DNA of 52,850 nucleotides from Patescibacteria group bacterium (GCA_030917065.1 JAUPVL010000033.1:1-52850); one strand, 5' to 3'. Positions 1,921 to 50,042 are shown, numbered from the stretch's first letter. The notes: generated by a model not told the origin, from the letters alone. Translations and numbers: made by a program.

Positions 1921-1949
1921 AAACAGTCCGTATCTAATGCGGATTGTTT
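1921..1949 (+). terminator. hairpin after the glutaredoxin-like gene
   Basis: A roughly 12-bp stem forms between aaacagtccgta and tgcggattgttt (some G-U pairs) with loop tctaa. It is T-rich on the 3' side and lies immediately before the uvrB -10 box. Confidence 0.45.
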
Positions 1950-1961
1950 TATAATACTTAT

Positions 1962-3950
1962 ATGACAAGTTTTGCTCTAAACTCCAAATACCAACCCGCC
2001 GGCGATCAACCTTATGCCATCAAAAAGCTTACGGGTGGCCTGAAGGACAATCTAAAGGAACAAACCCTACTGGGAATAACAGGTAGCGGTAAGACCTTTA
2101 CCATGGCCAATGTGATAGCAAGCTACAATAAGCCAACCCTCATACTAAGCCACAACAAGACTTTGGCTGCTCAGCTCTACGGTGAATTCAAAGAGTTTTT
2201 CCCGAATAACGCTGTTCATTATTTCGTGAGCTATTTTGATTATTATCAACCAGAGGCCTACATAGCTCGCTCAGATACTTATATAGAGAAAGATAGTGCC
2301 ATCAACGAAGAGATAGATAGACTTCGTCATGCCACCACTGCAGCGTTACTTAGCAGAAAGGATGTAGTAATAGTTGCATCGGTAAGCTGCATATATGGCA
2401 TCGGTAATATTACCGACTACACCAACATGACAGTCAAGCTGGGTCTAGGCGAGCGAAGGGTTCGCGACAAATTACTGCGTCAGCTCAACGATATACAGTA
2501 TCAGCGCAACGACTCCGCATTTGAGAGAGGCAACTTCAGAGTGCGCGGTGAAAACCTCGATATCTTTCCAGTGGGTGAGGAGTTTGCTTACCGCATAGAG
2601 TTCTTTGGTGACGAGATATCGGCTATCAAGCAAATCAACTATTTAACGGGTGAGGTAGTTAAGAAGCTGCAGGAAGTATCTATCTTTCCAGCCAAACACT
2701 ACGTCACCCCACAAGACCAGCTCCGTGTTGCTATGGAAAAGATAAGAGTAGAGGCAGATGAGCGCATAGAATGGTTTAAGTCACATGATATGCTTCTCGA
2801 AGCACAGCGCATAGAGAATCGCGTAAAATACGATCTAGAGATACTGGAACAAACCGGCTATGTGAAAGGTATCGAAAACTATGCTAGATATCTTACTAAT
2901 CGCGAACCTGGTGCACAGCCAGCAACCCTAATGGATTATTTCCCTGATGACTACTTGATGTTTATAGACGAATCTCATATGACTATTCCGCAGGTTGGGG
3001 GTATGTACAATGGCGACAGAGCACGCAAGACTACGCTAATAGAGCACGGATTTCGTCTGCCTTCAGCACTAGACAACAGACCGCTCAATTTTACAGAGTT
3101 CGAAAGACATATCAACAAAGTCATATATGTATCTGCCACACCAAGTGAATATGAGATGAGTAGAAGCAGCCAAAAAGTCGAGCAAATCATCCGACCTACT
3201 GGATTGCTCGATCCGATAATAGAGGTACGTGGCTCAGAACACCAAGTAGATGATTTGTTGGCAGAGATACAACAAAGGGTGAAGTCTGGAGAAAGAACTT
3301 TGGTGACTACGCTTACCAAAAGGATCGCCGAAGATCTTACTGAATACATGCAAGAGATAGGCATCAAGGTACAGTACTTGCACAGTGATGTTGATACGCT
3401 AGAGCGTACTGATATACTGCGTGATCTTAGACTAGGAGTATATGACGTACTGGTAGGTATCAATCTATTGCGAGAGGGGCTAGATCTACCAGAGGTAAGC
3501 CTAGTAGCTATAATAGATGCTGACAAAGAAGGCTTCTTGCGCTCAGAGACTAGCCTTATACAGACTATTGGACGTGCGGCTCGTCACCAGGAAGGCAAAG
3601 TGATAATGTACGCCGATAAGATTACTGGTTCGATGAAAAGAGCTATAGATATCACAACCAAACGCAGAAAATATCAAGAAGATTACAATAATACTCATGG
3701 CATCACCCCTAAGACTGTTCAAAAGGCACTGGCAGACAGTATGCAAGCTGAGATAGAGGCTGAGAAATCTGATTTGCAATCAATTGATTTCAAAAAAGTG
3801 CCAAAAGATGAGCTACAATTTATTACCAAGCAACTGACCGAACAAATGGAGCTTGCTGCTGCCAATCTGCAATTTGAAAAAGCTGCCGAGCTAAGGGATC
3901 AACTAGAAGAAATCAAAGACGTATTAAATAGTAAAAGGATGAGTAAATGA
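1962..3950 (+). CDS. uvrB: excinuclease ABC subunit B
   Basis: The N-terminus is canonical (YQPAGDQPYAIKKL), with Walker A GITGSGKT, DESH, helicase motifs and a C-terminal UVR motif (QFEKAAELRDQLEEI). ATG 1962 is preferred over TTG 1944 because TATAAT at 1950-1955 lies inside the longer ORF. Confidence 0.95.
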   Translation: MTSFALNSKYQPAGDQPYAIKKLTGGLKDNLKEQTLLGITGSGKTFTMANVIASYNKPTLILSHNKTLAAQLYGEFKEFFPNNAVHYFVSYFDYYQPEAYIARSDTYIEKDSAINEEIDRLRHATTAALLSRKDVVIVASVSCIYGIGNITDYTNMTVKLGLGERRVRDKLLRQLNDIQYQRNDSAFERGNFRVRGENLDIFPVGEEFAYRIEFFGDEISAIKQINYLTGEVVKKLQEVSIFPAKHYVTPQDQLRVAMEKIRVEADERIEWFKSHDMLLEAQRIENRVKYDLEILEQTGYVKGIENYARYLTNREPGAQPATLMDYFPDDYLMFIDESHMTIPQVGGMYNGDRARKTTLIEHGFRLPSALDNRPLNFTEFERHINKVIYVSATPSEYEMSRSSQKVEQIIRPTGLLDPIIEVRGSEHQVDDLLAEIQQRVKSGERTLVTTLTKRIAEDLTEYMQEIGIKVQYLHSDVDTLERTDILRDLRLGVYDVLVGINLLREGLDLPEVSLVAIIDADKEGFLRSETSLIQTIGRAARHQEGKVIMYADKITGSMKRAIDITTKRRKYQEDYNNTHGITPKTVQKALADSMQAEIEAEKSDLQSIDFKKVPKDELQFITKQLTEQMELAAANLQFEKAAELRDQLEEIKDVLNSKRMSK

Positions 3951-4699
3951 GCGAACCAACACCGAAAGACAATAACGAATCGAGACCTGCATATGAAATG
4001 GGTACTCTCGGAGCATTAGAAGAAATGATGAGAAAACAGCAATCACATGCAGATTCAGAAAGTGAAAACATGCCAGAAAACCCAGTCGAATCTCAGATAC
4101 AACAATGGCAAACTGAGTCTGGCAAAGAACTAAAAGTTGAAATGAGTGAGTTTGGATACCCTATTATTGACTTATCGCAAACACCCCCAGAAGATGCGAT
4201 GGATTTTTTGAGGTTTATCGCTAGTCAGCAGGAGGTTGTCTATCCCGGCATGCACGATAATGAATTCCGTCGACAGGCTGGGATGCCAGATGTAGCGCCA
4301 TGGGAAACCTTAGACCCGTCATTATCGCACCAGCCCGAAGGCCGCAAGGCTGTTTATGCTACCAAGAGCTTAGAGGGGGGTATTGCTCATGCTGCCATAG
4401 AGCATAAAACATCAGACATAAACGATGGCGAAACTTATTCCCTAAAGATGAACTCAATTGGGAGCAGAATTGTAGAAGTATCACCTCAATTACATGAAAG
4501 AATTCAAGAGGGAGGGGAGGTTTTCACTGAAGGCCTATTGTATGTTTTGCCCGCCGAGCCATTCCATGATACCAAAGATAGTAATCACGAAGTTAAAACA
4601 CAGAAAAAAGTTAGGCCGGTACTAGTCGTGAAGATTGGTGGATCGTTAGGCCGAAGTGTTATTACCCCGGAGTCTACAGAAGTTAGAGGAGGAAAATGA
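3947..4699 (+). CDS. hypothetical protein, MSEP-N-terminal family member 1
   Basis: Its start overlaps the uvrB stop (ATGA). The N-terminus, MSEPTPKDNNESRPA, is shared with the next gene and with 47296..47826. No recognisable domain was seen. Confidence 0.6.
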   Translation: MSEPTPKDNNESRPAYEMGTLGALEEMMRKQQSHADSESENMPENPVESQIQQWQTESGKELKVEMSEFGYPIIDLSQTPPEDAMDFLRFIASQQEVVYPGMHDNEFRRQAGMPDVAPWETLDPSLSHQPEGRKAVYATKSLEGGIAHAAIEHKTSDINDGETYSLKMNSIGSRIVEVSPQLHERIQEGGEVFTEGLLYVLPAEPFHDTKDSNHEVKTQKKVRPVLVVKIGGSLGRSVITPESTEVRGGK

Positions 4700-5892
4700 G
4701 CGAACCAATCCCAGAAGATAATGCAACAAGTAAGCCAGCGATGTCACCGGAGACAATTGCAGAGCTAAAGGCTATAGCACAAAAAGACAAACCATCTGCC
4801 CAAGAACCTGATCCTGATAAGACAAGTAATTGGGAACAGTATTATAGAAAAAATCAAACTAACGAAAGTGAGGATGATATGAACGATGAAAACTTTGAAA
4901 AAGCCTGGAGTATGTATGCTGGCTACGACGAGTATTATCAGCGTGTCAACGAACAAAGAGCAGCAAGTGGGAAGGTTGCAATCGAGAAGTTTGGACTAGG
5001 CAACGAAGTTACTATTATCGCTAGTATCAATGTAGATCCAGTGTCTGGTAAAGCCATAGATGGACATGATTACCATCCAGAAGCACGAAGTATGCGCGAT
5101 ATAGAAGAGGCATGGCAAAAATATCTGTCAGAAACTCCTCCAGAAGAAAGATTTGTGATTTTTGAAGGAAATAGCGAAAGTTTCTCGGATCGAGATACTG
5201 CCATACGTCAGCGTACTGAAGCAGGTATGATGATGTATCATGCCGACCAAGAGGGCGTAGAGCGCACCACGGGAGAACCAAGCGATCTAGTAGTGGCTGA
5301 AGAGCTAGAGAAAGCCGGCATTACGAGAGAAGAAACAGCATTGCTTTTTACTCTCAGATCTCTTGCGACACATGCTAGCAGTGAGCCAATTGGTGATATG
5401 TCTAAGAATTTCTATCCACATATGGCATCAGTAGGATTTGAAGGATTTCCTCAGTACAAAGAAGAACAAAAAAAAGTATTCGAGCAAGATAAAGATGGCA
5501 AATTTGTCGACAATAGTCCAGAAGCAGTCGAGCAAAGGGCGCAGATAAATCGTGAAATTTTTGATAAGATTGTTCCTTTTGTAGATAAATGGAACGAAGC
5601 CTTGGAGAGCTATGGACTACCAAAGCTCTCGGTCAGTGAAGACCAAGAAATTGTGTTTGAAGAATCAGTATCAAGAGGTGATGTTGCAAAAAGTAGCAAT
5701 CCCGCCGGTGAAGGACAGCACTCTGAGCGTATGGCACAAATGACTGCAATTCGCGACAGACATATTTTCGAAACGATTGTTGAAGCTACTAAGTCAGGTA
5801 GAAAACCTTTTGTGGTTTACGGCGGATCTCATGTAGTTAGTTTAGAGCCGACACTCAAGCAGTACTACGGTTCGCAAAGAGTTCTTGAATAG
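4696..5892 (+). CDS. hypothetical protein, MSEP-N-terminal family member 2 (weak TraB/GumN/ChaN-like C-terminal motifs)
   Basis: It has an ATGA overlap with the upstream gene and the N-terminus MSEPIPEDNATSKPA. The C-terminal IRDRHIFETIVEA...KPFVVYGGSHVVSL resembles the (E/A)R(N/D)xxM...fvavGxxH signature of the TraB/GumN/ChaN (Tiki) superfamily. That match was made by eye only. Confidence 0.55.
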   Translation: MSEPIPEDNATSKPAMSPETIAELKAIAQKDKPSAQEPDPDKTSNWEQYYRKNQTNESEDDMNDENFEKAWSMYAGYDEYYQRVNEQRAASGKVAIEKFGLGNEVTIIASINVDPVSGKAIDGHDYHPEARSMRDIEEAWQKYLSETPPEERFVIFEGNSESFSDRDTAIRQRTEAGMMMYHADQEGVERTTGEPSDLVVAEELEKAGITREETALLFTLRSLATHASSEPIGDMSKNFYPHMASVGFEGFPQYKEEQKKVFEQDKDGKFVDNSPEAVEQRAQINREIFDKIVPFVDKWNEALESYGLPKLSVSEDQEIVFEESVSRGDVAKSSNPAGEGQHSERMAQMTAIRDRHIFETIVEATKSGRKPFVVYGGSHVVSLEPTLKQYYGSQRVLE

Positions 5893-5926
5893 TATTGACT
5901 TTGGTGATACAATTGAGCCTTAATTT

Positions 5927-8743
5927 ATGGCTCAACACGACAAAATCATCATCAAAGGTGCGCGCGAGCACAATCTTAAGAACATCGATGTCGAAATACC
6001 TAGAGACAAGCTGGTGGTGATTACTGGACTCTCCGGAAGTGGTAAAAGCTCTTTGGCATTTGATACTATCTATGCCGAGGGACAACGTAGATACGTAGAA
6101 TCGCTCAGTGCGTATGCCAGACAGTTTTTGGGGCTTATGGAAAAGCCTGATGTTGACCAAATAGACGGGTTGAGCCCAGCAATATCGATAGACCAAAAAT
6201 CATCTAGTCGCAATCCTCGTTCGACGGTCGCCACAGTGACAGAAATATATGATTATCTAAGACTTTTATTTGCTCGTATTGGAATACCCCACGATCCTAC
6301 TACAGGCGAGGTATTGACTCGTCAAACTCCCCAGCAAATAGTAGATATCATCAAACAATATCCCAAAGACACCAAGATAATAGTACTGGCACCGATAGTC
6401 AAAGACAAAAAAGGGGAACACAAGCACTTACTCGAGGAAGCACAGAAGGCTGGCTATACTAGAGTTCGTCTAGACGGTAATATTTATGAGATAGATGAAG
6501 TTCCGGCAATTGATCGCAACAAAAAACATACCATTGAGATTGCAGTAGATAGAATAAATATCGATGCAGAGAATCCTCAAAGACTAGTGGAGTCAGTAGA
6601 GGCTGCATTGCATCTAGGCGAGGGTGTGATCAATATATTGAATTTTGATACAAATGAAGAAAAATTATTCTCAGAGCACTATACGACTGTCAATTCTGAA
6701 TACGCCTTACCTGAGATAGAGCCCCGACTTTTTAGTTTCAACTCGCCTCACGGAGCGTGTCCCAAGTGTATGGGCCTCGGCTCACTACTAATAGTTGATC
6801 CAGAGCTGATAGTGCCCAATAAGAAGCTTAGTATTGCAGAGGGAGCAATAAGACCTTGGAGCAGAACCACCCAACGGCTTAGTTGGTACACCAAGTTACT
6901 AGAGGCAGTTTCTAAACTGCACAAGTTCAACTTAAACGTACCGGTCGACAAACTCTCCAAATCGAGTTTTGATATCATCTGTTACGGTACGGGTGACGAA
7001 GAAATAGGTGTACCAGGTCCAGGTGGTAAAATTTACAAAACCAAATTTGAAGGAGTAATACCAAATTTAGAAAGAAGATATCGAGAAAGCGATAGTGATT
7101 TTGTAAAAAGAGAAATCGAGAAATACATGACAACTCAGGTTTGTACGGAGTGTGATGGCAAAAGACTCAAACCCGAAGTGCTCGCTATAACCATCAAGGA
7201 CAACTCCATCGCAGATGTCACTGAATTGACCGTTGAAGACGCGCTGGATTATTTTTCTTCACTCAAGCTAGTAGATCAAGAAGCGACTATAGCCAACCAA
7301 ATTCTCAAGGAGATCAATGCCAGGCTGAAGTTTTTGAATGATGTTGGTCTTAGCTACTTATCGCTGAATCGTGCTGCCAATACTCTTGCTGGTGGAGAAG
7401 CACAAAGGATTCGTCTCGCCACACAGATAGGCTCTAGTCTTATGGGAGTACTCTATATACTAGACGAGCCTTCGATTGGGTTGCATCAACGAGATAATGA
7501 CAGACTCATAGATACTCTCAATACCCTAAGAGATCTTGGCAATACTGTAATAGTAGTAGAACATGACGAGGATACTATCAAGGCTGCTGACTATGTCATA
7601 GATATAGGGCCTCTTGCAGGTGAAGAAGGCGGACATGTTGTAGCAGCCGGTACGCCAGCAGAAGTGCAAAAGGTCAAGCAATCTTTGACTGGACAATATC
7701 TGAGCGGTAAAAAGAAGATAGAAGTACCCAAAAATCGCCGTAAGCCCGACGGGCGTTATCTGGAGATAATAGATGCCAGTGAACACAACCTCAAAAACAT
7801 AAGTGTAAAAATACCACTAGGGATCATGACAGTTGTCACTGGTGTATCAGGCAGTGGGAAATCTAGTCTTATCAACGACATACTCGCCCGCAAGCTCAGT
7901 CAGGAATATCATCGGTCCCAAGAGCCTGCCGGTAAATTTAAAGACATAGTTGGCACACAACATCTAGATAAGGTTATAGACATAGACCAAAGTCCCATAG
8001 GTCGCACGCCTCGAAGTAACACTGCTACATATACTGGAGCATTCAATGATATACGAGACCTTTTTGCCATGGTTCCTGAGGCAAAGATACGGGGTTATAG
8101 CGCAGGTCGATTCAGCTTCAATGTAAAAGGTGGTAGATGTGAAAACTGTAAGGGCGATGGAATAATCAAAATAGAGATGCATTTCTTGCCTGATGTATAT
8201 GTGACCTGTGAGTCATGTAATGGCAAAAGGTACAATCGAGAAGCTCTGGAGATACTGTACAAAGGCAAAAATATTTCAGATGTACTGGAGATGACAGTAG
8301 AGACTGCATGCGAATTTTTTGGCAATATACCCTCTATCTCAAGAAAACTAGAAACATTACGTAGTGTAGGATTGAGCTATATCAAACTAGGGCAACCAGC
8401 CACCACACTCTCTGGTGGGGAAGCGCAGCGTATTAAGCTCGCTTCTGAACTAAGCCGCCGTGCAACCGGTAAGACCCTATATATCTTAGACGAACCAACC
8501 ACCGGACTGCACTTTGAAGATGTTCAGAAATTACTAGAGGTATTGCAGGCGCTAGTGTCATTGGGTAATTCAGTACTCATAATAGAACACAACTTGGATG
8601 TAATTAAATCAAGTGATTGGGTGATAGATCTTGGCCCAGAAGGTGGCAACAAAGGAGGCCAAATAATCGGCTGTGGAACTCCCGAGCAAATTGCTAAGAT
8701 CAAGAATTCATATACAGGCCAATACCTCAAAAAAATGCTATAG
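5927..8743 (+). CDS. uvrA: excinuclease ABC subunit A
   Basis: There are two ABC modules ([10 protein letters not shown] and [11 protein letters not shown]alker A, with [13 protein letters not shown] signatures twice) and Zn-finger Cys pairs ([24 protein letters not shown]). At 938 aa it is full length. Confidence 0.95.
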
Positions 8744-8783: not shown

Positions 8784-10211
8784 ATGAACAAAAACTTAAA
8801 AGATAAGCTCTCGAAATTACCAAACTCACCCGGTGTATATTTTTTTATAAATAAATCCGGCGATATTATCTATATCGGTAAGGCCACGAGTTTGCGTTCT
8901 AGAGTCCGTTCGTATTTTCAATCCACTCACAACGATTACAAGACTCCAATGCTCGTAGAAAATATTTACGATCTTCGCACTATTGATGCTAATTCAAGCA
9001 TTGAGGCACTTTTCTTGGAAGCTGAGTTTATTAAGCGTCATAAGCCACTATATAATGTTCGTGAAAAAGACGATAAGAATTTTGTATATATAAGGCTAGC
9101 AATCGCAGAAGACTTCCCGTCTATAACAATAGTCCGCAGGCCAGCCGATGACAAATCTAAATACTATGGGCCATTTATTGCATCCTTTCAGGTAAAAGAA
9201 GCTCTGAGATATTTACGCAAAATATTTCCGTATTATACAAAGCCACAAAAAACACATTCATCAAAGCTAGAATATCAGATTGGCATCATACCACACCCCT
9301 CTATATCGCAGCTAGAATACAAAAAAAGCATTCGAAAATTAATGCTAATATTTGAAGGCAAGACCAGTCAGTTATTATCTCAACTCGAGAAAGAAATGAA
9401 CAAACTCTCAAAAACAAAAGATTTCGAAAAAGCTGCAGAAGTTCGAAATCAATACCTGGCAATTAAAGGGTTGAGCACTAAGATATCCATAGGCGATGAC
9501 GATACTTTTGATATACAGCTTGACCAGGCTCTTAGTCAATTGGCCAAAACCTTGAAACTCAGTAAGAATCCTAAAAGAATCGAATGTTATGACATAAGTA
9601 ATTTTGCTGGTACCGATGCTGTTTCGAGTATGATAGTTTTTACAGATGGCATTCCAGATCAAAAACAATACAGACATTTCAAGATGAGGACCAAAGGCCC
9701 AAATGATTTTGCAATGATGCAAGAGACTATAGAGAGAAGATTCTCATCACGCAACTCAGGCTGGGCTACTCCAGATCTAATAATCGTAGATGGAGGGAAG
9801 GGTCAGCTGAGTTCGGTAGCTAAAACATTACAAGAACTGAATCTAGACATACCAATATGTGGCCTTGCCAAACGATATGAGACTATTATAGTTCAAAATT
9901 CCGCTTCTCAAGAAGATAATTTTTCAGAATACAATTTCGAATCTAGTTCTCCACTACTTCATCTTTTACAAAGGATCAGAGATGAAGCCCACCGTTTTGC
10001 CATAAGCTATCATAGAGTATCCCGTAAAAAGCGCATTGACAACTCAGAGCTAGAGCAAATTGCTGGAATAGGTTCATCTACAGCAAAAAAACTCTTAAAA
10101 CACTTTAAGAGTACCAAATCAGTCAAGCTTGCCACGAGAGAAGAGATTGCAGAGATAGTAGGAATATCTAAGGCCGATCTTATTGTTGATTATTTCGACT
10201 CAAGTAAGTAG
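8784..10211 (+). CDS. uvrC: excinuclease ABC subunit C (compact, 475 aa)
   Basis: The protein has a GIY-YIG N-terminus (PGVYFFINKSGDIIYIGKATSLRSRV), a UVR motif (DFEKAAEVRNQYLAIKGL), an endonuclease domain (IECYDISN...IIVDGGKGQL...IRDEAHRFAI) and a C-terminal HhH (IAGIGSSTAKKLL). Confidence 0.9.
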   Translation: MNKNLKDKLSKLPNSPGVYFFINKSGDIIYIGKATSLRSRVRSYFQSTHNDYKTPMLVENIYDLRTIDANSSIEALFLEAEFIKRHKPLYNVREKDDKNFVYIRLAIAEDFPSITIVRRPADDKSKYYGPFIASFQVKEALRYLRKIFPYYTKPQKTHSSKLEYQIGIIPHPSISQLEYKKSIRKLMLIFEGKTSQLLSQLEKEMNKLSKTKDFEKAAEVRNQYLAIKGLSTKISIGDDDTFDIQLDQALSQLAKTLKLSKNPKRIECYDISNFAGTDAVSSMIVFTDGIPDQKQYRHFKMRTKGPNDFAMMQETIERRFSSRNSGWATPDLIIVDGGKGQLSSVAKTLQELNLDIPICGLAKRYETIIVQNSASQEDNFSEYNFESSSPLLHLLQRIRDEAHRFAISYHRVSRKKRIDNSELEQIAGIGSSTAKKLLKHFKSTKSVKLATREEIAEIVGISKADLIVDYFDSSK

Positions 10212-10852: not shown

Positions 10853-12592
10853 ATGAGTTCTTATTTTCGTTTTCAGCTAAATAGAAAAAGCAGAAAGTAT
10901 AAGCATAAATTTAGATCTTGGAGACGATGGGCTCTAAACTACACAGACCGGCATATTTTTGGAGGTTGGGAGAAGTTCAGCCAGTCAAGATGGGTATTTA
11001 TCTCTCTATTACTCGTATTTGTAGTGAGTATGTTTGGTTTATGGCAACAGCTATTGGCTCAAAATGACAGGTATCTTGGTATAGCCGCAGAATACGGAGG
11101 TACTTATGCTGAGGCCTTGAGCGGCCAAGTAAAAGGGGTTAATCCACTGTATCCGGATAACTCTGCTACAACAGATGTAACAGCGGTAGTTTTTTCTGGA
11201 CTTACGCGTGTCAACAGTGATCGCAAAATAGAGCCAGATCTAGCTAGTAGCTGGGAGGTGAGTGCCGATAAAAAAACATACACATTCAAGTTACGCCCAA
11301 ATCTCAAGTGGCATGATGGAGAAAAACTCGATGCCAACGATGTAGCATTTACGATATCTAGGATTCAAAACCCAGACTCCAGAAGTCCACTTTCAAGCAA
11401 TTGGAGTGGAGTAAATTACGAAGTATTAAATGATTTGACAATAAAATTTAGTTTGCCCAATAGCTACTCACCGTTTTTGTATAACACTACTGTAGGTATC
11501 ATACCTAAGCATATTCTAGAGGGAGTTCGACCTAGTCTTACCAAGACATTTGAATTCAATCAAAAACCAGTAGGTAGTGGTCCCTACAAGCTACCGGAAA
11601 TAGTAGAGAAAAGCGATGAAATAAACCTTGTTGCCTACGACGAATATCACTTCAGAAGACCTTATATAGATAAGCTCAAGTTTGTTCAATATACTAGCGA
11701 AAACGACTACCTAGATGGTTATCAGAAAAAACAGATCAGTGGGTTTGCAATAAGTGATCCTGATATTGAAAAGAAGGCAAGTCAGATTGATCAGCTCAAG
11801 ATCAACCATCTAAGCCTACCTGCTTATGGTGCGCTTTTTTTCAACATGAATTCACCAAATGTTAGTGATGTGAATTTCAGGAAAGCTCTTACATATGCTA
11901 CAGATAAAAACTCAATAGTCAAAAATCAACTTGATTCTCAGGCTATAGTAGTAAACTATCCCATACTGGCAGGCTATTCTGGATTTGATAGTACTGCTCC
12001 AAAGTATAGCTATGATGAGGCCCAAGCTAAGTCTATCATAAGCTCTATAGATCAGGAAAAAATAAAAAATACTCGAATACGTTTAGCTACACTTAGAAAC
12101 TCGGTCTATGAAGACATCGCTCTATCTGTAAAAGAGATGTGGGCAAAAGTAGGTGTTCAAGTTGATATAGCAAGCGTAGATCTTGACGAGCTACAACAAT
12201 ACTATATTCGTACCAGAAATTATGATGTTTTGTTGTATGGCCAAGATATAGGCTACGACTCAGATATATATGCCTATTGGCATTCTTCGCAGGCTAAAGA
12301 CCCAGGTCTCAATATTAGCCAGTACGTCAATCCTGAAGCTGATAAATATCTAGAGACCGGAAGGCTTGCAAAAGATACAGACTATAAGAATAGTCGATAC
12401 TCAGCTTTCTTGCAGACTTGGAGTAAAGACTTGCCTGCAATCATACTGTATACTCCTTATTACAACTATGCCCAGAGTATCGAAGTAAAAGGCTTCAGTG
12501 CCAATAAAATTGTAGAGCCAAGCAATAGATTCTACAATATTCAAGATTGGTACGTACTGACCAAACAAGCACCCAAAACTAATTCGAATTAG
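10853..12592 (+). CDS. ABC transporter substrate-binding protein, family 5 (peptide/nickel type), membrane anchored
   Basis: This 579-aa protein has an N-terminal basic segment plus a TM helix. The body shows family-5 SBP-like patterns (LTRVNSDRKIEPDLASSWEVSADKKTYTFKLRPNLKWHDGEKLDANDV). No permease or ATPase genes are adjacent. Confidence 0.7.
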   Translation: MSSYFRFQLNRKSRKYKHKFRSWRRWALNYTDRHIFGGWEKFSQSRWVFISLLLVFVVSMFGLWQQLLAQNDRYLGIAAEYGGTYAEALSGQVKGVNPLYPDNSATTDVTAVVFSGLTRVNSDRKIEPDLASSWEVSADKKTYTFKLRPNLKWHDGEKLDANDVAFTISRIQNPDSRSPLSSNWSGVNYEVLNDLTIKFSLPNSYSPFLYNTTVGIIPKHILEGVRPSLTKTFEFNQKPVGSGPYKLPEIVEKSDEINLVAYDEYHFRRPYIDKLKFVQYTSENDYLDGYQKKQISGFAISDPDIEKKASQIDQLKINHLSLPAYGALFFNMNSPNVSDVNFRKALTYATDKNSIVKNQLDSQAIVVNYPILAGYSGFDSTAPKYSYDEAQAKSIISSIDQEKIKNTRIRLATLRNSVYEDIALSVKEMWAKVGVQVDIASVDLDELQQYYIRTRNYDVLLYGQDIGYDSDIYAYWHSSQAKDPGLNISQYVNPEADKYLETGRLAKDTDYKNSRYSAFLQTWSKDLPAIILYTPYYNYAQSIEVKGFSANKIVEPSNRFYNIQDWYVLTKQAPKTNSN

Positions 12593-12618
12593 CTATTCTG
12601 GTATAGTGGTATTAATAA

Positions 12619-12707
12619 GCCGAAGTGGTGGAATTGGTAGACACGCTAGCTTCAGGAGCTAGTGAAACGAAAGTTTCTTGGAGGTTCAAATCCTCTCTTC
12701 GGCACCA
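12619..12707 (+). tRNA. tRNA-Leu (CAG)
   Basis: The acceptor pairs gccgaag/cttcggc, and the anticodon stem ctagc/gctag carries loop ttCAGga. It has a long variable arm, a T-loop ttcaaat and an encoded CCA. Confidence 0.9.
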
Positions 12708-12713
12708 GTGCAT

Positions 12714-13577
12714 TTATTGTTTTATATAATAGAAATTATATCCCGAGTCTCTGTTCCTATCCCATGTATAGGTTGGGCTAAGTAAACACCAGAATTGTTT
12801 ATAACAATCCAATCCTGCTATTTGATGTTCGAACGTTGAAGCTTCAGCTTGTTCTACATTGTTTCCGATCCTAGACAAGATTGCTCCCTCAGGAATCCCC
12901 GAGACTGGTCTTACGCAAAAGTCCGTTCCTTCAGGTATACCAAATGAGAATCTACCTTCACTATCGGTAGTTACTGTTCTATCTGCACTACATAGATTCA
13001 AGACCACTCCAGGCAAAGGTGCATCGTTAAGCGTTACTCTTCCATTGACTATTACATTATAACTACCCGATGTAATGCCAAATGGCTTAGGTGGTGGTGA
13101 TGGAGCGGGAGGAGGTGTCGCGGGTTCATTAGCTGCACTCGAAACGTTTGAGATCTGATCCTCCACCGCACTCGGTACGACCGCTCCTTTTGCCCAACAT
13201 TTAAAGCTAGAGCTCCATGGGGCAGTGCCTGCTTGTGCAAACGAAAGATAAAACCTTTCATCTTGAATCTCAGGCGGAGCATCGGCAGGGTCATAGTAGC
13301 CTTTGTAGTTGCCCCATGTAGAATAACTGTATTGATAAGCCCCGCGATATTTGGGGTTTTTCTTGTTGCCATAAAAAGTTCCAGATTCACACTGTGCAAT
13401 TCTAGGTCTCCAATAGTCTGGATTGTCTCTAAAGACAGTTACTCCTGCAGCAAGTGAGCGATAAATAAAGAATATCCCAAAAATTACAAAAACTATTATC
13501 AGTATGTATAACAAGGGCTTGTTCTTGACGGCTTTGGCCAGAGGGTTCTTGCCGGTGTGGGTTTTTTTGTTTTTCAT
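12714..13577 (-). CDS. secreted Rpf-like transglycosylase with Pro-rich linker and carboxypeptidase-regulatory-like beta domain
   Basis: An N-terminal TM/signal anchor is followed by IAQCESGTFYG...YRGAYQYSYSTWGNY...PWSSSFKCW, which resembles the transglycosylase-like (Rpf) domain. Next comes a PATPPPAPSPPPKP linker, then VNGRVTLNDAPLPGVVLNL...TTDSEGRFSF. Confidence 0.6.
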   Translation of the reverse strand: MKNKKTHTGKNPLAKAVKNKPLLYILIIVFVIFGIFFIYRSLAAGVTVFRDNPDYWRPRIAQCESGTFYGNKKNPKYRGAYQYSYSTWGNYKGYYDPADAPPEIQDERFYLSFAQAGTAPWSSSFKCWAKGAVVPSAVEDQISNVSSAANEPATPPPAPSPPPKPFGITSGSYNVIVNGRVTLNDAPLPGVVLNLCSADRTVTTDSEGRFSFGIPEGTDFCVRPVSGIPEGAILSRIGNNVEQAEASTFEHQIAGLDCYKQFWCLLSPTYTWDRNRDSGYNFYYIKQ

Positions 13578-13673
13578 AATACTTATCTTTAAGATAACAT
13601 TTTGGTCAAGCCTAGGTCAATCAAAAGAGCAGTTGATTGATAATAAGCACAATAATTGTTATGATTATTCTAA

Positions 13674-37296: not shown

Positions 37297-40200
37297 ATAG
37301 ACAGTATAAACGTTGAGCATCTAAATCAGACGATTTTAAAAGCCCGTTCTCAAAAGGGGTTTGTTGATTTTGTTCACCTACACAATCACACCCACTACAG
37401 TTTGCTGGATGGATTACAGAAAATACCGCCTTTACTCGATCATGTTGAAGAGCTGGGGCAAACAGCTTGTGCCATCACTGACCATGGCAGTCTTTCGGGA
37501 GCAATAGAATTTTACAAAGCCTGCAAAAGTAGAGACATAAAACCCATCATAGGCATAGAGACATATGTGGCTCCTCGTACTCACAAAGATAAAAACAGTG
37601 CAGAAGACAGAAATCCATACCACTTGATTTTATTAGCCCAGAACTTAACTGGGTACAAAAATATCATGAAGCTTAGCACCATAGCAAACCTTGAGGGGTT
37701 TTATTATAAGCCGAGGGTTGATCATGATTTGCTGCAAAAATACAATGAAGGCATTATTTGTTTGTCAGGCTGTATTGGTGGTGAGGTAGGTACTCATTTG
37801 AACAACGACAATTACGAAGAAGCTAAAAAGATCGCCGAGTTCTATAAGGGAGTGTTTGGTAAGGATAGATATTATCTAGAGATGCAAGCGCACACCGATT
37901 GGGCACCACAAGTAAAGGTCAATAACGGATTGAAAAAACTAGCTAGTGAACTAGAACTAGATCTAGTTGTGACTGGTGACGCTCATTACACAAAGCCTGA
38001 AGATCATTATTCACACGATATATTGCTCTGCGTACAAACGGGCAGCACCGTGGAAGATCCAAATAGAATGCGTCTTGATCAAGATTTGAGTGTTCATTCG
38101 GGTGCAGAAATATTAGAGAAATTCAAAGATACTCCAGAGGCAATATCTAACACTGTAAAGATAGCCAAGATGTGTGATTTGGAAATAGAATTGGGTCAGA
38201 TACTAATACCGAGATTTCCAGATTTACCTAAGGGTGAAACAGAAAACAGCTACTTGCGCAAATTGGTGTATCAAGGTGCGGCCAATAGATATACAGATAT
38301 ACCTAAAGAAGATATACCAGACATATCTATCGGCAAAGTAGAAGATAAACTAACATCTAAAATAAAGGACAGGATAGAGTTTGAGTTGAGCGTAATATCT
38401 GATATGGGATATGAAGGCTATATGCTGATTGTCGCAGATTTAATCAACTGGAGTAAATCTCAAGGGATTATTTGCGGCCCAGGTAGGGGTTCGGCTGCTG
38501 GTAGTATCATCGCGTATGTAACAAATATTACCGAGATAGATCCCCTCAAATATGATCTACTTTTTGAGCGCTTTTTAAACCCAGACCGTATCAGTATGCC
38601 AGATATCGACATGGACTATGCAGACGATAGACGCGAAGAGGTCATAGCTTATGCTACGGAAAAATACGGAACTGAGAGAGTGGCTCAGATAATAACTTTT
38701 GGGATAATGGCCGCTCGAAATGCTGTGCGTGATACAGGTAGGGTTTTGGACATGCCCTATGGAGAAGTTGATGCGATAGCAAAGCTAATCCCTCCACCCA
38801 TACAAGGTAGACACATACCTTTGGAGAAATCCATAGTAGAGAGTCCAGAGCTTAAGTCGGAGTACGAGACCAACCAAAAGGCCAAGAAGATTATTGATAT
38901 AGCCATCAAGCTAGAGGGAACTATAAGAAACGCTGGTACACATGCTGCAGGAGTAGTTATAGCACCTGAAAATCTGGTCGAATACGTACCCCTGACTCGA
39001 GCCAGCAAAGGGGGTGTGGCTACTCAATACTCCATGAATCCGGTTGAAGATCTTGGGTTGCTCAAGTTTGATTTTTTAGGTCTGTCAAACTTAACAATAC
39101 TAAAAAACACTCTAAGAATTATCAAAAAAGTTAATAACATCAATCTCGAGATTACTGACATACCTATAGACGACAAGAAGACTTATCAGTTGCTTAGCTC
39201 GGGGGATACTACTGGCGTCTTTCAGTTGGAGTCGTCTGGTATGAAGCGCTACATCAGAGACCTAAAGCCTGATAGATTCGAAGATATTATCGCTATGGTT
39301 GCGCTATATAGGCCAGGCCCAATGCAATGGATAGAAGATTTTATCAACAGAAAACACAATCCTGAGCTTATCTCTTATGGTCATCCTAAGATGAAAAAAG
39401 CTCTTCAGAATACATATGGTATCATCGTATATCAAGAACAAGTCATGCAAATCGCTAAAGATCTTTGTGGTTTCACTGGTGGGCAGGCCGATACATTGCG
39501 TAAGGGTATAGGTAAAAAAATACCCGAAGTTATAGCCAAGATGAAAAAAGACTTTATAGATGGTGCTTTGCAAACATCCCAAGTAGAACCAAAGTTTATT
39601 GAGGATTTATGGAAGAGTATAGAAGATTTTGCCGCTTATTGCTTCAATAAGTCTCACGCAGCTTGCTACGCTCTAATAGCAGTACAGACAGCATATCTAA
39701 AAGCGCATTATCCCTCTGCATTTATGGCAGCTATCATGACGAGCGATCATGAAAACTTAGATAGAATAGCCATAGAAGTGGCAGAGTGCCGCAAGATGGG
39801 CATTGAACTGTTGCCTCCAGATATCAACGAGAGCTATTCAGAGTTTGCGATAGTACCCGACACCAACAATATTCGTTTTGGGTTGGGGGCTGTAAAAAAT
39901 GTTGGGCAAGGTCCTATCGAAAAAATACTAGAAGCACGTTCTGAGGGTGGCAAGTTTACTAACCTCGAAGATTTTTGTAAGAGAGTAGATGCAACAGTAA
40001 TAAACAAAAAAGTCATGGAATCGCTAATAAAATGCGGTGCCTTTGATTCGTTAGGCAACCGAGATACCTTGCTAAACAATATACCAATTATTACTAGCTA
40101 TGCATCGAGAGTTCAGAAAAACGCCCTGAGTGGCCAGATTGATATATTTGGCACCAGCGGTATGACAAATGAAGTACCACCGCTTGCTCTAGAGCCTCCA

Positions 40201-40953
40201 CGACAAAAGCCAGACCCCAGATCTCACCTGATGTGGGAAAGAGAGCTACTTGGTCTGTTTATCAGTAGCCATCCTTTGGATGACTTTAGAAATTACTTAG
40301 AATTCAAGACACAGTCTATTAAGAGCTTCAATAGCTCAAATGACTCCAGCCCTATAACGGTAGGCGGTATTATTACGGCAGTTCGACAGATATATACTCG
40401 CAACAATGATGCCATGGCATTTGTAAAGATCGAATCATTAGACGCCGAACTAGAGATAGTGGTATTTCCTAGAGTCTACGAAAAATACAAAGAAGCTTGG
40501 ACGGTAGACAACGTGGTGGAGGTCAAGGGAAAAATCAATGCTCGAGATAGAGATGGCAAGCCAACTGATGATATCAAGGTATTGGCTGACGGTGTTAAAA
40601 TACTGAGTCCCGAAACAGCCAAACATTACCCAGCCCAACCCAAAAAAGATAATAGTGTTGTGGCTGAAGAAAACGAGCAAAAAGAATTGCAAATTGAGCC
40701 TGGTGCATCAGACCTAAAATCTGTAATTTTTAAATTGCCTACACCGAGCAATCCAAAAGTACTTGTGGAGATAAAAAAACTTCTTAAAGTCCATGAAGGG
40801 CAAGTCTCTCTATTTCTTAGCTTTGAAGGCCAAAATAAGAAGCTTAAATTACCTGGCGGAGTTAGCGGTAACGAAGACTTTATAAAATCAGCTCAAGATA
40901 TTGTAGGCAAAAACAATGTTGTTTTAGAAGAATCTGTCACAAAGATTAGCTAG
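37297..40953 (+). CDS. dnaE: DNA polymerase III alpha subunit
   Basis: The reading frame is open from 37294. The PHP N-terminus FVHLHNHTHYSLLDG is encoded at 37369-37413, upstream of the first canonical start (TTG 37402). The polymerase core, HhH and OB-fold regions follow. The start assignment (ATA 37297 after AGAGG, or ATT 37333) is tentative. Confidence 0.9.
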   Translation: MDSINVEHLNQTILKARSQKGFVDFVHLHNHTHYSLLDGLQKIPPLLDHVEELGQTACAITDHGSLSGAIEFYKACKSRDIKPIIGIETYVAPRTHKDKNSAEDRNPYHLILLAQNLTGYKNIMKLSTIANLEGFYYKPRVDHDLLQKYNEGIICLSGCIGGEVGTHLNNDNYEEAKKIAEFYKGVFGKDRYYLEMQAHTDWAPQVKVNNGLKKLASELELDLVVTGDAHYTKPEDHYSHDILLCVQTGSTVEDPNRMRLDQDLSVHSGAEILEKFKDTPEAISNTVKIAKMCDLEIELGQILIPRFPDLPKGETENSYLRKLVYQGAANRYTDIPKEDIPDISIGKVEDKLTSKIKDRIEFELSVISDMGYEGYMLIVADLINWSKSQGIICGPGRGSAAGSIIAYVTNITEIDPLKYDLLFERFLNPDRISMPDIDMDYADDRREEVIAYATEKYGTERVAQIITFGIMAARNAVRDTGRVLDMPYGEVDAIAKLIPPPIQGRHIPLEKSIVESPELKSEYETNQKAKKIIDIAIKLEGTIRNAGTHAAGVVIAPENLVEYVPLTRASKGGVATQYSMNPVEDLGLLKFDFLGLSNLTILKNTLRIIKKVNNINLEITDIPIDDKKTYQLLSSGDTTGVFQLESSGMKRYIRDLKPDRFEDIIAMVALYRPGPMQWIEDFINRKHNPELISYGHPKMKKALQNTYGIIVYQEQVMQIAKDLCGFTGGQADTLRKGIGKKIPEVIAKMKKDFIDGALQTSQVEPKFIEDLWKSIEDFAAYCFNKSHAACYALIAVQTAYLKAHYPSAFMAAIMTSDHENLDRIAIEVAECRKMGIELLPPDINESYSEFAIVPDTNNIRFGLGAVKNVGQGPIEKILEARSEGGKFTNLEDFCKRVDATVINKKVMESLIKCGAFDSLGNRDTLLNNIPIITSYASRVQKNALSGQIDIFGTSGMTNEVPPLALEPPRQKPDPRSHLMWERELLGLFISSHPLDDFRNYLEFKTQSIKSFNSSNDSSPITVGGIITAVRQIYTRNNDAMAFVKIESLDAELEIVVFPRVYEKYKEAWTVDNVVEVKGKINARDRDGKPTDDIKVLADGVKILSPETAKHYPAQPKKDNSVVAEENEQKELQIEPGASDLKSVIFKLPTPSNPKVLVEIKKLLKVHEGQVSLFLSFEGQNKKLKLPGGVSGNEDFIKSAQDIVGKNNVVLEESVTKIS

Positions 40954-44793: not shown

Positions 44794-47277
44794 ATGAAGC
44801 CAGAGGGATTCCCAGACGTTTTTGACAGATTTACGCAAAATGCAAAACAGACTTTGCAATACAGTGGACAGTTAGCTATACAGATGGGAGCTGCCTATGT
44901 GGGTACTGAACATTTGCTGTTGGGTATTTTAAAATCTCCAGGATCATTGGGTGCTAAGCTTCTAAAAGAGAGCGGGGTAACTCTAGATAAAATCAACCCT
45001 AGTCTCATATCTGCCACTGGTGCAATAGTCGAGCCTAATAGCCCCCAGATGATTGATCTTTCCGAAACCGCCAAAAAAACTATTACGCTTGCATTGAGGG
45101 TAGCACAAGAGTTTGGCCAGACCTACGCAGGCACAGAACATATCTTATTTGCAATTCTCAATCAAAAGAACTCTAGAGCTCAAACTATTTTAGCTGAAAT
45201 CAAGGTGGATCCAGTCAAGCTGAGATCTGATGTGGAGAGTTTCTTACAAAACCAACCACATTCATTTGAACAGCCTTCAGTAACCAAAGAAGACAATGGA
45301 GCCAACAGTAAGACACCAGCACTTGATCACTTCAGTATTGATCTGACCCAAAAGGCCAAAGAAGAGAAGCTAGATCCTATGGTTGGGCGCAGAGCTCAGC
45401 TTGATAGGATGATATCCATACTCAACAGAAGATCCAAAAACAACCCCGTACTGATAGGTGAGCCGGGAGTGGGAAAAACTGCAATAGTAGAAGGACTGGC
45501 CCAAAGAATCGTAGAAGAAGAAGTCCCAGATCTTTTGGTTGGTAAGCGGATAATGATGTTAGACATGGCATCAGTGATTGCGGGTACAAAATTTCGTGGT
45601 GAATTTGAAGAGAGACTCAAAAAAGTACTCGATGAAGCCAAGGAATCTGATGACGTTATATTGTTCATAGACGAATTGCACAATGTAGTCGGAGCTGGAT
45701 CTGCAGAAGGAGCTATAGATGCTGCCAATATCTTAAAGCCTGCCCTCGCGCGTGGTGAAGTGCAGACTATAGGCGCCACAACCATTGAGGAGTATCGTAA
45801 GTATATAGAGAAGGACTCGGCGTTAGAACGTAGATTTCAACCAGTTCAAGTGCCAGAATCTACAATTGATGAAACTATCGAGATACTTAAAGGTCTAAGG
45901 CCTCACTATGAGAAATTTCACAATGTTGAGATTTCTGACGAAGCCTTAGAACAAGCTGCCAAACTGGCCAAGAGATATATTTCTGACAGATTTATGCCCG
46001 ACAAGGCAATAGATCTCATTGATGAATCTTCCGCTCAAGCCCGTATCAACCGAGGTGGGATGGGCAAAAAACAACGACAATTGGAAAAGAAACTCAATGA
46101 CCTCAACAACTCTATTGAAGACTCTGTGTACAACCAAGACTTTGAATACGCTGCAAAACTCAAATCAGAGGTTTCGGTCCTGGAGCAAAAACTAAAAGCC
46201 CAACTAAAAAAAGACGACAAGAAGACTGCTGTCTCTGTGACTGCTGAAGATATTGCTATGGTAGTGGCACAGACTACCGGCATACCTATCACTAAACTCA
46301 TCAAGTTCGAAACAGAAGCGCTCAAACGACTTGAACAGAGTCTTAAGGCCAAAGTAATAGGTCAAGACGAAGCTGTTGAGGCTGTAGCGAGAGCCGTGCG
46401 CCGTAGTCGTACCGGTATCGCTGAAGAGAATAGGCCGATTGGCTCGTTTATATTCTTGGGCCCTACTGGAGTTGGTAAGACTGAGCTGGCACGGGTACTC
46501 GCGGAAGAATTATTCCAAGACAAAGATGCCATGATCAAGGTAGACATGAGTGAATTTATGGAGAAACACAATACTGCAAGATTAGTGGGTGCACCGGCTG
46601 GATATGTCGGCTATGACGATGGCGGACAGCTTACAGAAAAGATTCGACGAAGACCATATAGTCTGATACTTTTTGATGAAATCGAAAAAGCTCATCCTGA
46701 GGTATTCAATATATTGCTACAAATACTAGAGGATGGTGTGCTGACTGACGCCAAGGGTCGCAAAGTAGATTTCCGTAATACTATGATTATTATGACTAGT
46801 AATGTTGGAGCGAGACAATTGCACGAAGAAGCTGAAATAGGTTTTGCAACTATTACTCAAAAAGACGAAGATAGACTTGAGAAGGTTCATGACAAGATGA
46901 AGTCTACAGTCAAAAAAGAACTTAAGAAGAGTTTTCGTCCAGAGTTTTTGAATCGCATTGATCACGTAGTGGTATTTAGAGCACTCAGTCAAAAAAGCAT
47001 TTCTCAAATCATCAACCTTCAGCTGGCTGACCTTGCCCGTAGACTCGAGGCCAAAGAGGTGATATTGAGATTTTCCAAATCAGTTAGTGGTATGCTCTTA
47101 AAAGAAGGCTATGACGCAGATAATGGAGCCAGACCTATGCGCAGAGCCATACAGCGACTCATAGAGGACCCGCTCGCCACTCAAATGATCGACGGGAGTA
47201 TCAAGCCAGGCGATACGGTCAAAGTAAGCGTAGACAAAGACGATAAGGTAGAGCTAAAAGTTGCGCTTGGTGTATAG
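44794..47277 (+). CDS. clpC: ATP-dependent Clp protease ATP-binding subunit ClpC
   Basis: An AAGGAGG SD precedes the start. The protein has Clp_N repeats, two AAA+ modules (GEPGVGKTA and GPTGVGKTE), a UVR motif ([16 protein letters not shown]) in the middle domain and a C-terminal ClpB_D2-small domain. Confidence 0.9.
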
Positions 47278-49253: not shown

Positions 49254-50042
49254 ATGTATATATTTATAATTGCCGCCTTGGCACTTGCAGTTTTGATACT
49301 ATCAATTGCAATGTATTTACTCACCAAAAAAACCAACCCTAAGTCAACTGGATCAGATGCTATCAAGTCAGCTAGTGTTGATCATTCTCAGATACTCGTA
49401 GACACGTCAGCAATCATCGACGGCAGAATAGCAGACATCGCAAAGACTGGTTTTGTACCTGGTAAGTTGCTAGTGCCTAGATTCGTACTCGCTGAGCTAC
49501 AAAACATCGCTGATTCCGAAGAGCCAATGCGACGTAGTCGTGGTAGAAGAGGACTAGAAATGCTCAACCTTATACGCGAGAATCCTAGTGTAGAGCTAGA
49601 TATCGTAGAAGATAATCCTGAGGATGTAGCGGAAGTAGATCACAAGCTTGTACATCTCGCTAGAGAGTACAACTGTGATATCTTGACTACAGACTATAAC
49701 CTCAATCGTGTAGCTACTATAGAGCAAGTCAAGGTACTCAATATCAACGAGCTAGCCAACTCTATACGTGCAGTAGTATTACCAGCCGAAGAGATGCGAG
49801 TAAAGGTAGTACAAAAAGGCAAGGAGAAAAATCAAGGCTTAGCTTATCTTGAAGACGGCACAATGATAGTTGTAGAAAATGGCGATAAGCTGATAGGTAA
49901 AGAAATAGATGTCGAAGTCACTAGAATATTTCAAACTGTTGCAGGCAAGATGATATTTGCAGCTCAAAAAGGCCATGCCAGAAAAACCAGCTCCAATAGA
50001 TCAAATAACAATCACAATAGTAGAAGAACTAACAAGTCTTAA
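49254..50042 (+). CDS. PIN/TRAM domain protein (YacL-like)
   Basis: An N-terminal TM helix is followed by a PIN domain ([13 protein letters not shown]...[12 protein letters not shown]) and a TRAM domain ([34 protein letters not shown]). It follows radA, as in the Firmicute clpC-radA-...-yacL order. Confidence 0.8.

Follow-up and report, generated by a model that had tools for sequence, protein, structure and literature searches.

A shared N-terminal leader on variable, laterally exchanged enzyme-like genes between uvrB and uvrA of environmental Saccharibacteria

Between uvrB and uvrA, in the excision-repair operon of an uncultured Saccharibacterium (TM7), lie two genes of unfamiliar type, which we call X1 and X2. 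They were studied on a stretch of 52,850 nucleotides (GCA_030917065.1, JAUPVL010000033.1:1-52850), hereafter the window, in which positions are counted from the first letter. The window has a G+C content of 41%, its proteins have their relatives in assemblies of Candidatus Saccharibacteria and Patescibacteria, and DNA near-identical to it is present in freshwater, activated-sludge and bioreactor metagenomes. Open reading frame (ORF) calling gives the gene order uvrB, X1, X2, uvrA, uvrC, all on the + strand. An initial annotation, made from the sequence alone, had proposed that X1 and X2 are a lineage-specific accessory pair with a common N-terminal tag, expressed stoichiometrically with the excision-repair machinery. 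Here we show how this N-terminal module, or leader, recurs on genes of unrelated families that occupy the gap between uvrB and uvrA (the slot) in different relatives, and how these genes probably form a kit of linked enzymes and are less likely to be additional components of the repair machinery. The features of the locus, with lengths in amino acids (aa) or nucleotides (nt), are the following.

1944..3950, + strand: uvrB; its TGA stop (3948-3950) overlaps the X1 ATG; Pfam UvrB_inter, UvrB, Helicase_C and UVR above cut-off
3947..4699, + strand: X1, ORF of 250 aa; accessory enzyme gene of a rare family with an H-Y-E-type triad, candidate ADP-ribosyltransferase-like fold
3947..4033, + strand: X1 leader module, 29 codons, MSEPTPKDNNESRPAYEMGTLGALEEMMR (from BLASTP and a leader hidden Markov model, HMM)
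4244..4246, + strand: X1 codon 100, CCC (Pro), where the family alignment has a near-invariant His (VV[YF]HG motif)
4686..4699, + strand: X1/X2 junction; purine-rich GAGGAGG (4686-4692), then the ATGA overlap (4696-4699)
4696..5892, + strand: X2, ORF of 398 aa; anchor of the slot, from a Saccharibacteria-specific hydrolase-like family, candidate divergent TIKI/TraB/ChaN-like enzyme
4696..4782, + strand: X2 leader module, 29 codons, MSEPIPEDNATSKPAMSPETIAELKAIAQ (BLASTP, alignment and leader HMM)
5065..5070, + strand: X2 His124-Asp125, invariant in a 34-sequence alignment
5164..5166, + strand: X2 Glu157 (FEG), invariant in the same alignment
5752..5757, + strand: X2 Arg353-Asp354 (RDRH), invariant, inside a weak Pfam ChaN match at residues 308-380
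5821..5832, + strand: X2 Gly376-Gly377-Ser378-His379 (GGSH), invariant in the 34-sequence alignment
5893..5926, + strand: X2-uvrA spacer of 34 nt
5927..8743, + strand: uvrA; Pfam UvrA well above cut-off
8784..10211, + strand: uvrC; Pfam UvrC well above cut-off

Translational coupling of the two inserted genes, as proposed in the initial annotation, was confirmed by their overlaps, with ATGA present at 3947-3950 for uvrB/X1 and at 4696-4699 for X1/X2. That uvrA comes right after X2 and is followed by uvrC also holds, with the spacer ahead of uvrA counting 34 nt instead of the 35 first given; the spacer between uvrA and uvrC is 40 nt. The GAGGAGG before the X2 start, which at the same time provides codons for the RGGK at the C-terminus of X1, is a putative Shine-Dalgarno-like element, and the junction ...GGAGGTAAATGA of X1 and X2 is identical in L027, one of the related loci. 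The 13 nt with which both genes were said to begin, ATGAGCGAACCAA, occur solely at 3947 and 4696 when both strands of the whole window are considered. Likewise, the two proteins do share an N-terminus and are otherwise unrelated: BLASTP of X1 against X2 gives residues 1-35 as the sole significant segment (14/35 identical, E=1e-4), and the helix assigned earlier to this region reappears in AlphaFold2 models, at residues 18-29 of X2 and 19-37 of X1, each time after a low-confidence stretch.

The leader, of about 29 residues, consists of a disordered, acidic and proline-rich stretch, then an amphipathic helix, after which a variable linker begins. Its HMM (29 residues) was run on 2,821 ORFs of at least 50 aa from the window and 35 related loci, 468 kb in all. 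It had been considered beforehand that the motif might turn up on many unrelated proteins; at E<0.01 the matches are slot genes only, and these come from four unrelated families: X2, X1, a zincin-like peptidase and a GT2 glycosyltransferase. Carriers include X1, X2 and the zincin in L027, the GT2 protein, the zincin and an X2 paralogue in L034-36, and an X2-X2 fusion in L012, while a degenerate-pattern scan of a metagenome collection brought just two further loci, both at uvrB. The proposed common tag is thereby borne out as a portable module that is present in orthologues and stands on at least four unrelated enzyme families.

Type-A X2 proteins, of which the leader follows the pattern MxEPTPxDNxxSKPAxSxxTLxxLKAMA, have a mean pairwise identity of 0.66 over the leader and 0.68 over the core, with a drop to 0.43 in the linker; in the divergent X2 paralogue P0030, 55% is retained in the leader and 38% in the core, but 3% in the linker. 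Between the X1 and X2 of the window, 12 of the 29 leader residues are shared, and 7 of the 11 identical non-Met residues use different codons; the X1 leader is the most diverged copy, being 12-15/29 identical to the others. Judged by a leader as conserved as the X2 core and by this synonymous divergence, selection is shown to act on the leader peptide. Recent gene conversion as the source of the 13 identical bases and the shared peptide was ruled out, since identical residues are mostly encoded differently. A second leader type (..RNVYAELKAGMEKGK) is common to the X2 of another lineage (P0008, P0016, P0018 and L013) and to the X1-like P0055, over the first ~36 residues only. As such, leader type varies from lineage to lineage in step across the enzyme families, which is the pattern to expect of a peptide with a single, lineage-specific binding partner. 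We infer that the leader is a common recognition peptide; it looks like a shared address tag, and the idea of such a tag is supported.

The content of the slot differs among relatives whose UvrB is 86-93% identical, as the following loci illustrate.

Window: X1, X2
L001: X2
L025: X2, followed by another gene that runs off the contig
L012 (= L026): a 372-aa gene (X3) that shares only MSEPTPD, then a tandem X2-X2 fusion with full leader
L027: a 145-aa gene, a 242-aa HExxH zincin-like gene, X1, X2
L034-36: a 602-aa GT2 glycosyltransferase, a zincin-like gene, an X2 paralogue
L013: X2, a zincin-like gene
L011: X2, an HSDR_N / PD-(D/E)XK gene

The 602-aa protein passes the Pfam cut-off for Glycos_transf_2 (31.7 bits vs 23.3). 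The slot family of 242-256 aa carries HE[FV]GH and EDYAES motifs (L013 3486-4256, L027 2675-3403, L034 3876-4613) and, from these motifs and one weak Pfam ATLF match, can be read as zincins like anthrax lethal factor (LF) or MtfA. These two cassettes thus resemble LF/MtfA-like zincins in their motifs and GT-A glycosyltransferases in their Glycos_transf_2 domain, but unlike the known enzymes they bear the Saccharibacterial leader; neither type is present in the window. A kinase-like gene is also among the slot contents of relatives.

A scan of GTDB species representatives with X2 as seed gave 24 loci. X2 is found between uvrB and uvrA in 13 of these, and in unrelated contexts in the other 11, whereas X1 occurs in none of the 24; of the uvrB-X-X-uvrA arrangement whose conservation the initial annotation had raised, it is therefore the X2 part that recurs. 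X2 also stands in the slot in L025, L027 and L034-36, and its start overlaps the uvrB stop in most slot loci (L001-L004, L009, L011, L013, L014, L022), down to an X2 identity of 33%. In L001, of which UvrB is 92% and UvrA 95.5% identical to those of the window, uvrB abuts X2 directly, and X1 is likewise missing from L012 and L025, all with UvrB and UvrA more than 90% identical. At UvrB identities of 91-93%, X2 is 40-85% identical (40-74% where UvrA stays at 95%), which means that it evolves far faster than UvrA and UvrB, and stoichiometric repair subunits are not expected to behave in this way. Nor was the constant presence found that would mark a dedicated repair subunit, with X1 in none of the 24 loci or L025, X2 in the slot in 13/24 and 11 homologues located elsewhere. 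Considering in addition that the slot content is different in almost every close relative, and that the X1-X2 block has been exchanged laterally (see below), neither the notion of a fixed accessory pair nor a dedicated role of X1 and X2 in excision repair is supported. The lineage specificity proposed with it stands, as homologues were found in Saccharibacteria only. Contigs from four metagenome runs, compared with the locus for variants lacking X1, yielded only low-depth fragments with unchanged gene order and no informative joints.

Several natural fusions connect X1 and X2. P0048 (554 aa) is an X1-X2 fusion without leader, the X2 part of which matches at E=3e-53. Furthermore, P0029 (in L005) joins X2 to a C-terminal domain that is homologous to the C-terminus of P0050, where the same domain follows X1 (E=2e-21); its D-x4-N ... 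D motifs read as kinase-like. Natural fusions are known for X1-X2, X1-X4 and X2-X4, and by this token X1, X2 and the third domain are shown to be functionally linked. A 309-aa gene just upstream of uvrB in L035 (1416-2345), which starts MPKHIPEPTPEP and has no Pfam match, ends with a kinase-like ..DLNGNNIL..RYTLIDIA, and this end resembles the C-terminal domain fused to X1 in P0050 and to X2 in P0029.

The two genes also travel together. Between the window and L027, the proportion of fourfold degenerate sites that differ is 65% for uvrB, 63% for uvrA and 71% for uvrC, against 36% for X1 and 34% for X2 (Fisher p=2e-14 for the contrast of X1-X2 with uvr). The blocks compared were L027 3426-5365 and window 3947-5892, with X1-X2 about half as diverged as the flanks. 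A lower divergence at such sites than in the flanks means that the block was exchanged between lineages after their uvr genes diverged, and on this measure lateral exchange of X1-X2 into the same slot is shown.

Values of 0.24 for X1 and 0.13 for X2 in the ratio of non-synonymous to synonymous substitution (dN/dS), each against the L027 orthologue, show both to be real genes. X2 has 37 homologue clusters in an index of 5.8 billion proteins, all unannotated, and 34 aligned sequences are invariant at H124-D125, E157-G158, R353-D354 and G376-G377-S378-H379. The catalytic-looking order is therefore His-Glu-Arg-His, with 33 residues from His to Glu and 26 from Arg to His. In the RRSP endopeptidase of MARTX toxins this order is H3902-E3930-R4001-H4030, with corresponding spacings of 28 and 29, and the catalytic set of the TIKI superfamily consists of two His and two Glu plus a conserved basic residue on the core sheet (PMC6254334). 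As such, the residue order and local spacing of X2 are compatible with the superfamily of TIKI, TraB-PrgY-GumN, ChaN and erythromycin esterase to which RRSP belongs. In contrast to RRSP, X2 has about 196 residues between Glu and Arg where RRSP has about 71, and a second catalytic Glu was not identified in X2.

The likeness of X2 to TIKI, TraB and ChaN proteins, which had been noted by eye, is thus retained in the order of motifs and in Pfam matches below threshold, and not in any match of fold. No Pfam or NCBIfam family matches X2 at threshold; the best Pfam match of the window protein is Cofac_haem_bdg (16.5 bits vs a cut-off of 27.7, E=0.009), and among the 34 members weak matches below cut-off are to Cofac_haem_bdg in 9, DUF5694 in 7 and TraB_PrgY_gumN in 3. 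Structure prediction and profile searches, both suggested at the outset, gave AlphaFold2 models for the two proteins and no significant PDB or profile match for either. For X2 (predicted local distance difference test, pLDDT, 85.6; predicted TM score, pTM, 0.79), Foldseek against the PDB reached a best E of 0.59 with a TM of ~0.1 and listed no TIKI-family structure (ChaN, Bcr135, RRSP, PMT type), so that this model has no relative among solved structures. The X2 alignment profile found no superfamily member among PDB sequences; spurious matches in the profile searches with X1 and X2 were to chemoreceptor fragments and HIV protease. Comparison of the X2 alignment with E. coli K-12 YbaP, of the TraB family, by hhalign gave a non-significant probability of 0.2, a weak test with a single-sequence template. 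A TIKI-like nature of X2 is therefore a lead, not a membership.

X1 belongs to a rarer family, with 8 homologues in the same index and 38 in a representative set of 1.84 billion proteins searched exhaustively by profile; a protein identical to the window X1 is on record for 11 contigs. In the superfamily alignment (A5, 37 members), G101 and E215 are invariant, while H100 of the HG motif and Y137 of VYAT are at least 90% conserved. The window X1 has P100 instead of the His that is found in at least 90% of the superfamily, the L027 orthologue among them. As such, with this Pro100 and the most decayed leader, it may be a catalytically impaired copy, though one that is intact and under purifying selection.

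The X1 model (pLDDT 75, pTM 0.71) has one strong match in BFVD, an uncharacterised Megaviridae (giant-virus) protein at E=5e-6. Phage DarT follows with a probability of 0.82, E=0.058 and a TM(target) of 0.52, and other ADP-ribosyltransferases (ARTs), including a viral NAD+ ART, at E 0.1-0.7. Against the PDB, Foldseek gave nothing below E=0.2; its matches at E 0.2-2 were to PARP4, exotoxin A and the ART-like part of CNFy. No Pfam or NCBIfam model matches X1 at threshold; family models run on its 37 relatives gave only DUF6886 in 3 members (best 9e-5, below cut-off) and one NarE match at 0.23, and the X1 alignment profile found spurious matches only among PDB sequences. The fold matches are individually weak but clustered on ARTs, and an ART-like X1 remains a lead. 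His, Tyr and Glu stand in the X1 superfamily in the canonical order of the H-Y-E ART fold (PARP/DarT-like), and pairing or fusion with the hydrolase-like X2 recalls the DarT-DarG pair. Unlike these, X1 has no sequence match to ART families, its partner X2 is not a macrodomain, and the window copy has Pro for His. Distant X1 relatives sit outside the slot and without leader: P0044 after dnaG-rpoD, and P0041 beside an SMC-like gene, with a second neighbour that by eye reads as RNase III-like. In P0073, an X1-like domain is joined to an HD-like region (19.9 bits vs a Pfam cut-off of 22).

Several other observations concern the operon and its surroundings. A promoter-like TTGAAT-17-TACAAT (with TG) at 5885-5913, a consensus match only, lies over the end of X2 and the X2-uvrA spacer, and uvrA may have its own promoter as well; in a scan of the locus for promoters and terminators, counts were not above those of shuffled controls. 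In L022 (18-2627), a LAGLIDADG-like segment (..LLSGLFAGDGWI..) at the start of the uvrB ORF points to an intein, and in L014 (524-2050) the uvrB ORF is only 508 aa long and lacks roughly residues 286-474. L007-L010 have an extra ~1.6 kb between uvrA and uvrC (about 11900-13600) that is not in the window. Upstream, at 1061-1609, the window encodes a Pro/Ser/Thr-rich protein of 182 aa with one C-terminal hydrophobic segment, between thioredoxin-reductase-like and glutaredoxin-like genes, and this protein is kept in the close relatives L001, L012 and L025. Remaining housekeeping genes of the window include DNA polymerase III alpha (37402-40953), a ClpC/ClpB-type ATPase (44794-47277) and a class A penicillin-binding protein (50039-52684, - strand).

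So what could the slot genes be doing between uvrB and uvrA? The reading we favour, with a tentative probability of roughly 0.4, is that X1 and X2 are cassettes of a variable, laterally exchanged array, of which the leader would more likely point to a delivery or export partner than to the repair machinery. In one clade of environmental Saccharibacteria, an array of enzyme genes would occupy the uvrB-uvrA gap, with X2 as its old anchor, a hydrolase-like protein with invariant His...Glu...Arg...His and translation coupled to the end of uvrB. X1, with its H-Y-E signature and hint of an ART-like fold, would be an optional partner enzyme working with X2, and other genomes would fill the slot with a zincin peptidase, a GT2 glycosyltransferase, a kinase-like protein or an X2-X2 fusion. 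The leader would then be one recognition peptide that brings all slot enzymes to the same partner, presumably a pathway of delivery or export for enzymes that would be directed against the host bacterium or against competitors, while the uvrB and uvrA flanks may serve mainly as a recombination hot spot and a source of expression. It is the repertoire of putative enzymes (TIKI-like, LF/MtfA-like zincin, glycosyltransferase, ART-like and kinase-like), together with their turnover, fusions and lateral transfer, that leads us to an effector-like kit. Delivery is also favoured by the presence in Patescibacteria of a widespread type IV secretion system of which the substrates are unknown (10.1101/2025.01.22.634366).

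Effectors and polymorphic toxins are characterised by a single N-terminal module in front of varied enzymatic domains, along with polymorphism, and this feature is present here, as are fusions and lateral exchange. The MIX and RIX effectors of the type VI secretion system and the LXG effectors of the type VII secretion system are families defined by a shared N-terminal marker. The slot genes resemble these in all of the above and in having lineage-specific variants of the marker; they differ in that their leader is much shorter (~29 aa), that no secretion, adaptor or immunity genes are nearby, and that they lie inside a housekeeping repair operon. Cargo proteins of encapsulins and bacterial microcompartments carry short terminal targeting peptides. 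Here the likeness is in a short, terminal amphipathic-helix peptide with a flexible linker on different enzymes encoded side by side, but neither the window nor the related loci showed a shell gene.

A number of points weigh against delivery. At the loci examined, no gene for secretion or delivery stands beside the slot, nor is there any obvious immunity-like partner, in a Pfam scan that covered the slot genes and a few neighbours; these neighbours, in the window and related loci, are trxB-like, glutaredoxin, uvrABC, holin-like, secG and ABC substrate-binding protein genes. It is this lack of linked secretion or immunity genes that keeps our confidence from being higher. The leader has no Sec-type hydrophobic core, and the overlap of the X2 start with the uvrB stop, which persists down to an X2 identity of 33%, is not something that a gene carried along purely by accident would have to preserve. 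Assignments of X1, X2 and the kinase-like domains to enzyme classes are weak. Confinement of the leader to the slot rests on the 468 kb and on one metagenome collection in which the clade is rare, and a search of the protein index with a 44-aa leader alignment returned nothing, not even known X2 proteins, which makes it uninformative and leaves slot confinement not proven genome-wide.

A proposal that is essentially the idea of the initial annotation would make the slot a repair accessory kit, with the leader docking on UvrB, UvrA or UvrC (e.g. on the UVR helical hairpin) and thereby recruiting lesion-processing enzymes to stalled excision-repair complexes; a hydrolase or protease would act on DNA-protein crosslinks or ester-linked adducts, and another enzyme would handle ADP-ribose. 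The residence of X2 in the slot in 13 of the 24 species loci and in L025, L027 and L034-36, mostly overlapping uvrB, agrees with this, as do the location of every leader-bearing gene found and the two putative peptidases in the slot. DarT lesions are repaired by nucleotide excision repair, and phage DarT, a DNA ADP-ribosyltransferase, is what the X1 model weakly matches. The contents vary, however, among relatives with nearly identical UvrA and UvrB, X1 often being missing; X2 evolves much faster than either, 11 of its 24 homologues have no uvr neighbour, and the X1 relatives P0044 and P0041 are located elsewhere and lack the leader. Moreover, the GT2 glycosyltransferase and kinase-like proteins have no known role in excision repair, and the cassette block moves laterally, all of which renders such a kit unlikely. 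What still speaks for docking is that the uvrB-X2 overlap is conserved over deep divergence and that the leader is confined to the slot; the more specific version, in which the leader is a UvrABC docking peptide that brings a changing lesion-processing set (TIKI-like hydrolase/protease, zincin, DarT-like relative, glycosyltransferase) to damaged DNA, seems to us rather improbable. To a similarly low degree we would credit an intracellular conflict module, be it toxin and antidote or defence, with X1 as an ART-like toxin acting on DNA or protein, X2 as a reversing or restraining hydrolase, the other cassettes as alternative effector modules, and the leader mediating assembly of the partners. 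The fusion, co-transfer and adjacency of X1 and X2, the shuffling with kinase-like and HD domains, the PD-(D/E)XK / HSDR_N gene adjoining X2 in L011, and the ART-like hints for X1 would all suit a module of this kind, but X2 is alone in most genomes, a PADLOC scan of ten slot proteins and fusions had no match better than E=0.019, the window X1 is kept intact without its near-invariant His, and no regulator or sensor component was seen.

The leader might also have no function of its own. Incoming genes could have been captured in frame behind the first X2 codons through duplication of the uvrB-stop/X2-start junction, which would make the similarity a decaying scar, or else a requirement for re-initiation after the ATGA overlap. 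Unrelated genes right after uvrB do keep a few codons (X3 in L012 has MSEPTPD, and the 145-aa gene of L027 keeps MSE with the same ATGAGCGAA start), and the leader of the window X1 is the most decayed copy. A scar would not be expected to look as it does elsewhere, though: leader conservation equals that of the catalytic core and is far above that of the linker, identical residues are encoded by different codons, the leader is also retained by genes of L027 and L034 that start away from an ATGA junction, and a second leader type is common to several families in another lineage, so that we hold this account to be quite improbable. Finally, the leader as a common degradation or regulatory tag, e.g. 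for a Clp-type unfoldase that would hold the levels of the slot enzymes under one control, deserves very little credence. The AlphaFold2 models do place a disordered and then helical module at the extreme N-terminus, and the window has a ClpC-type ATPase, but this is a housekeeping gene; nothing speaks for the tag specifically, and the co-variation of leader type with lineage fits any binding partner.

In the literature, we came across no account of the X1 and X2 families or the leader and none of a Saccharibacterial uvrBA operon with inserted genes, and nothing relevant on DUF6886, on DUF5694, or on Saccharibacteria in combination with uvrA or uvrB. Should the partner of the leader turn out to be UvrA or UvrB, this would be a new modular extension of nucleotide excision repair, and docking on UvrABC, if true, would amount to a modular system, coupled to repair, that deals with DNA-protein crosslinks or ADP-ribosyl/ester adducts and is of a sort undescribed in any bacterium. 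Whichever partner is involved, the natural fusions, the co-transfer of X1 and X2 and their invariant catalytic-looking residues make both proteins good targets for biochemistry. Saccharibacteria, like other Patescibacteria, are surface dwellers on other bacteria, and to our knowledge, how they act on these hosts is largely unknown. A lineage-specific leader on at least four unrelated enzyme families provides a searchable handle for candidate effectors, for the binding partner and for export. If the effector reading is true, the leader would be the first delivery signal that can be recognised in Patescibacteria, and the genes behind it their first such effector set.

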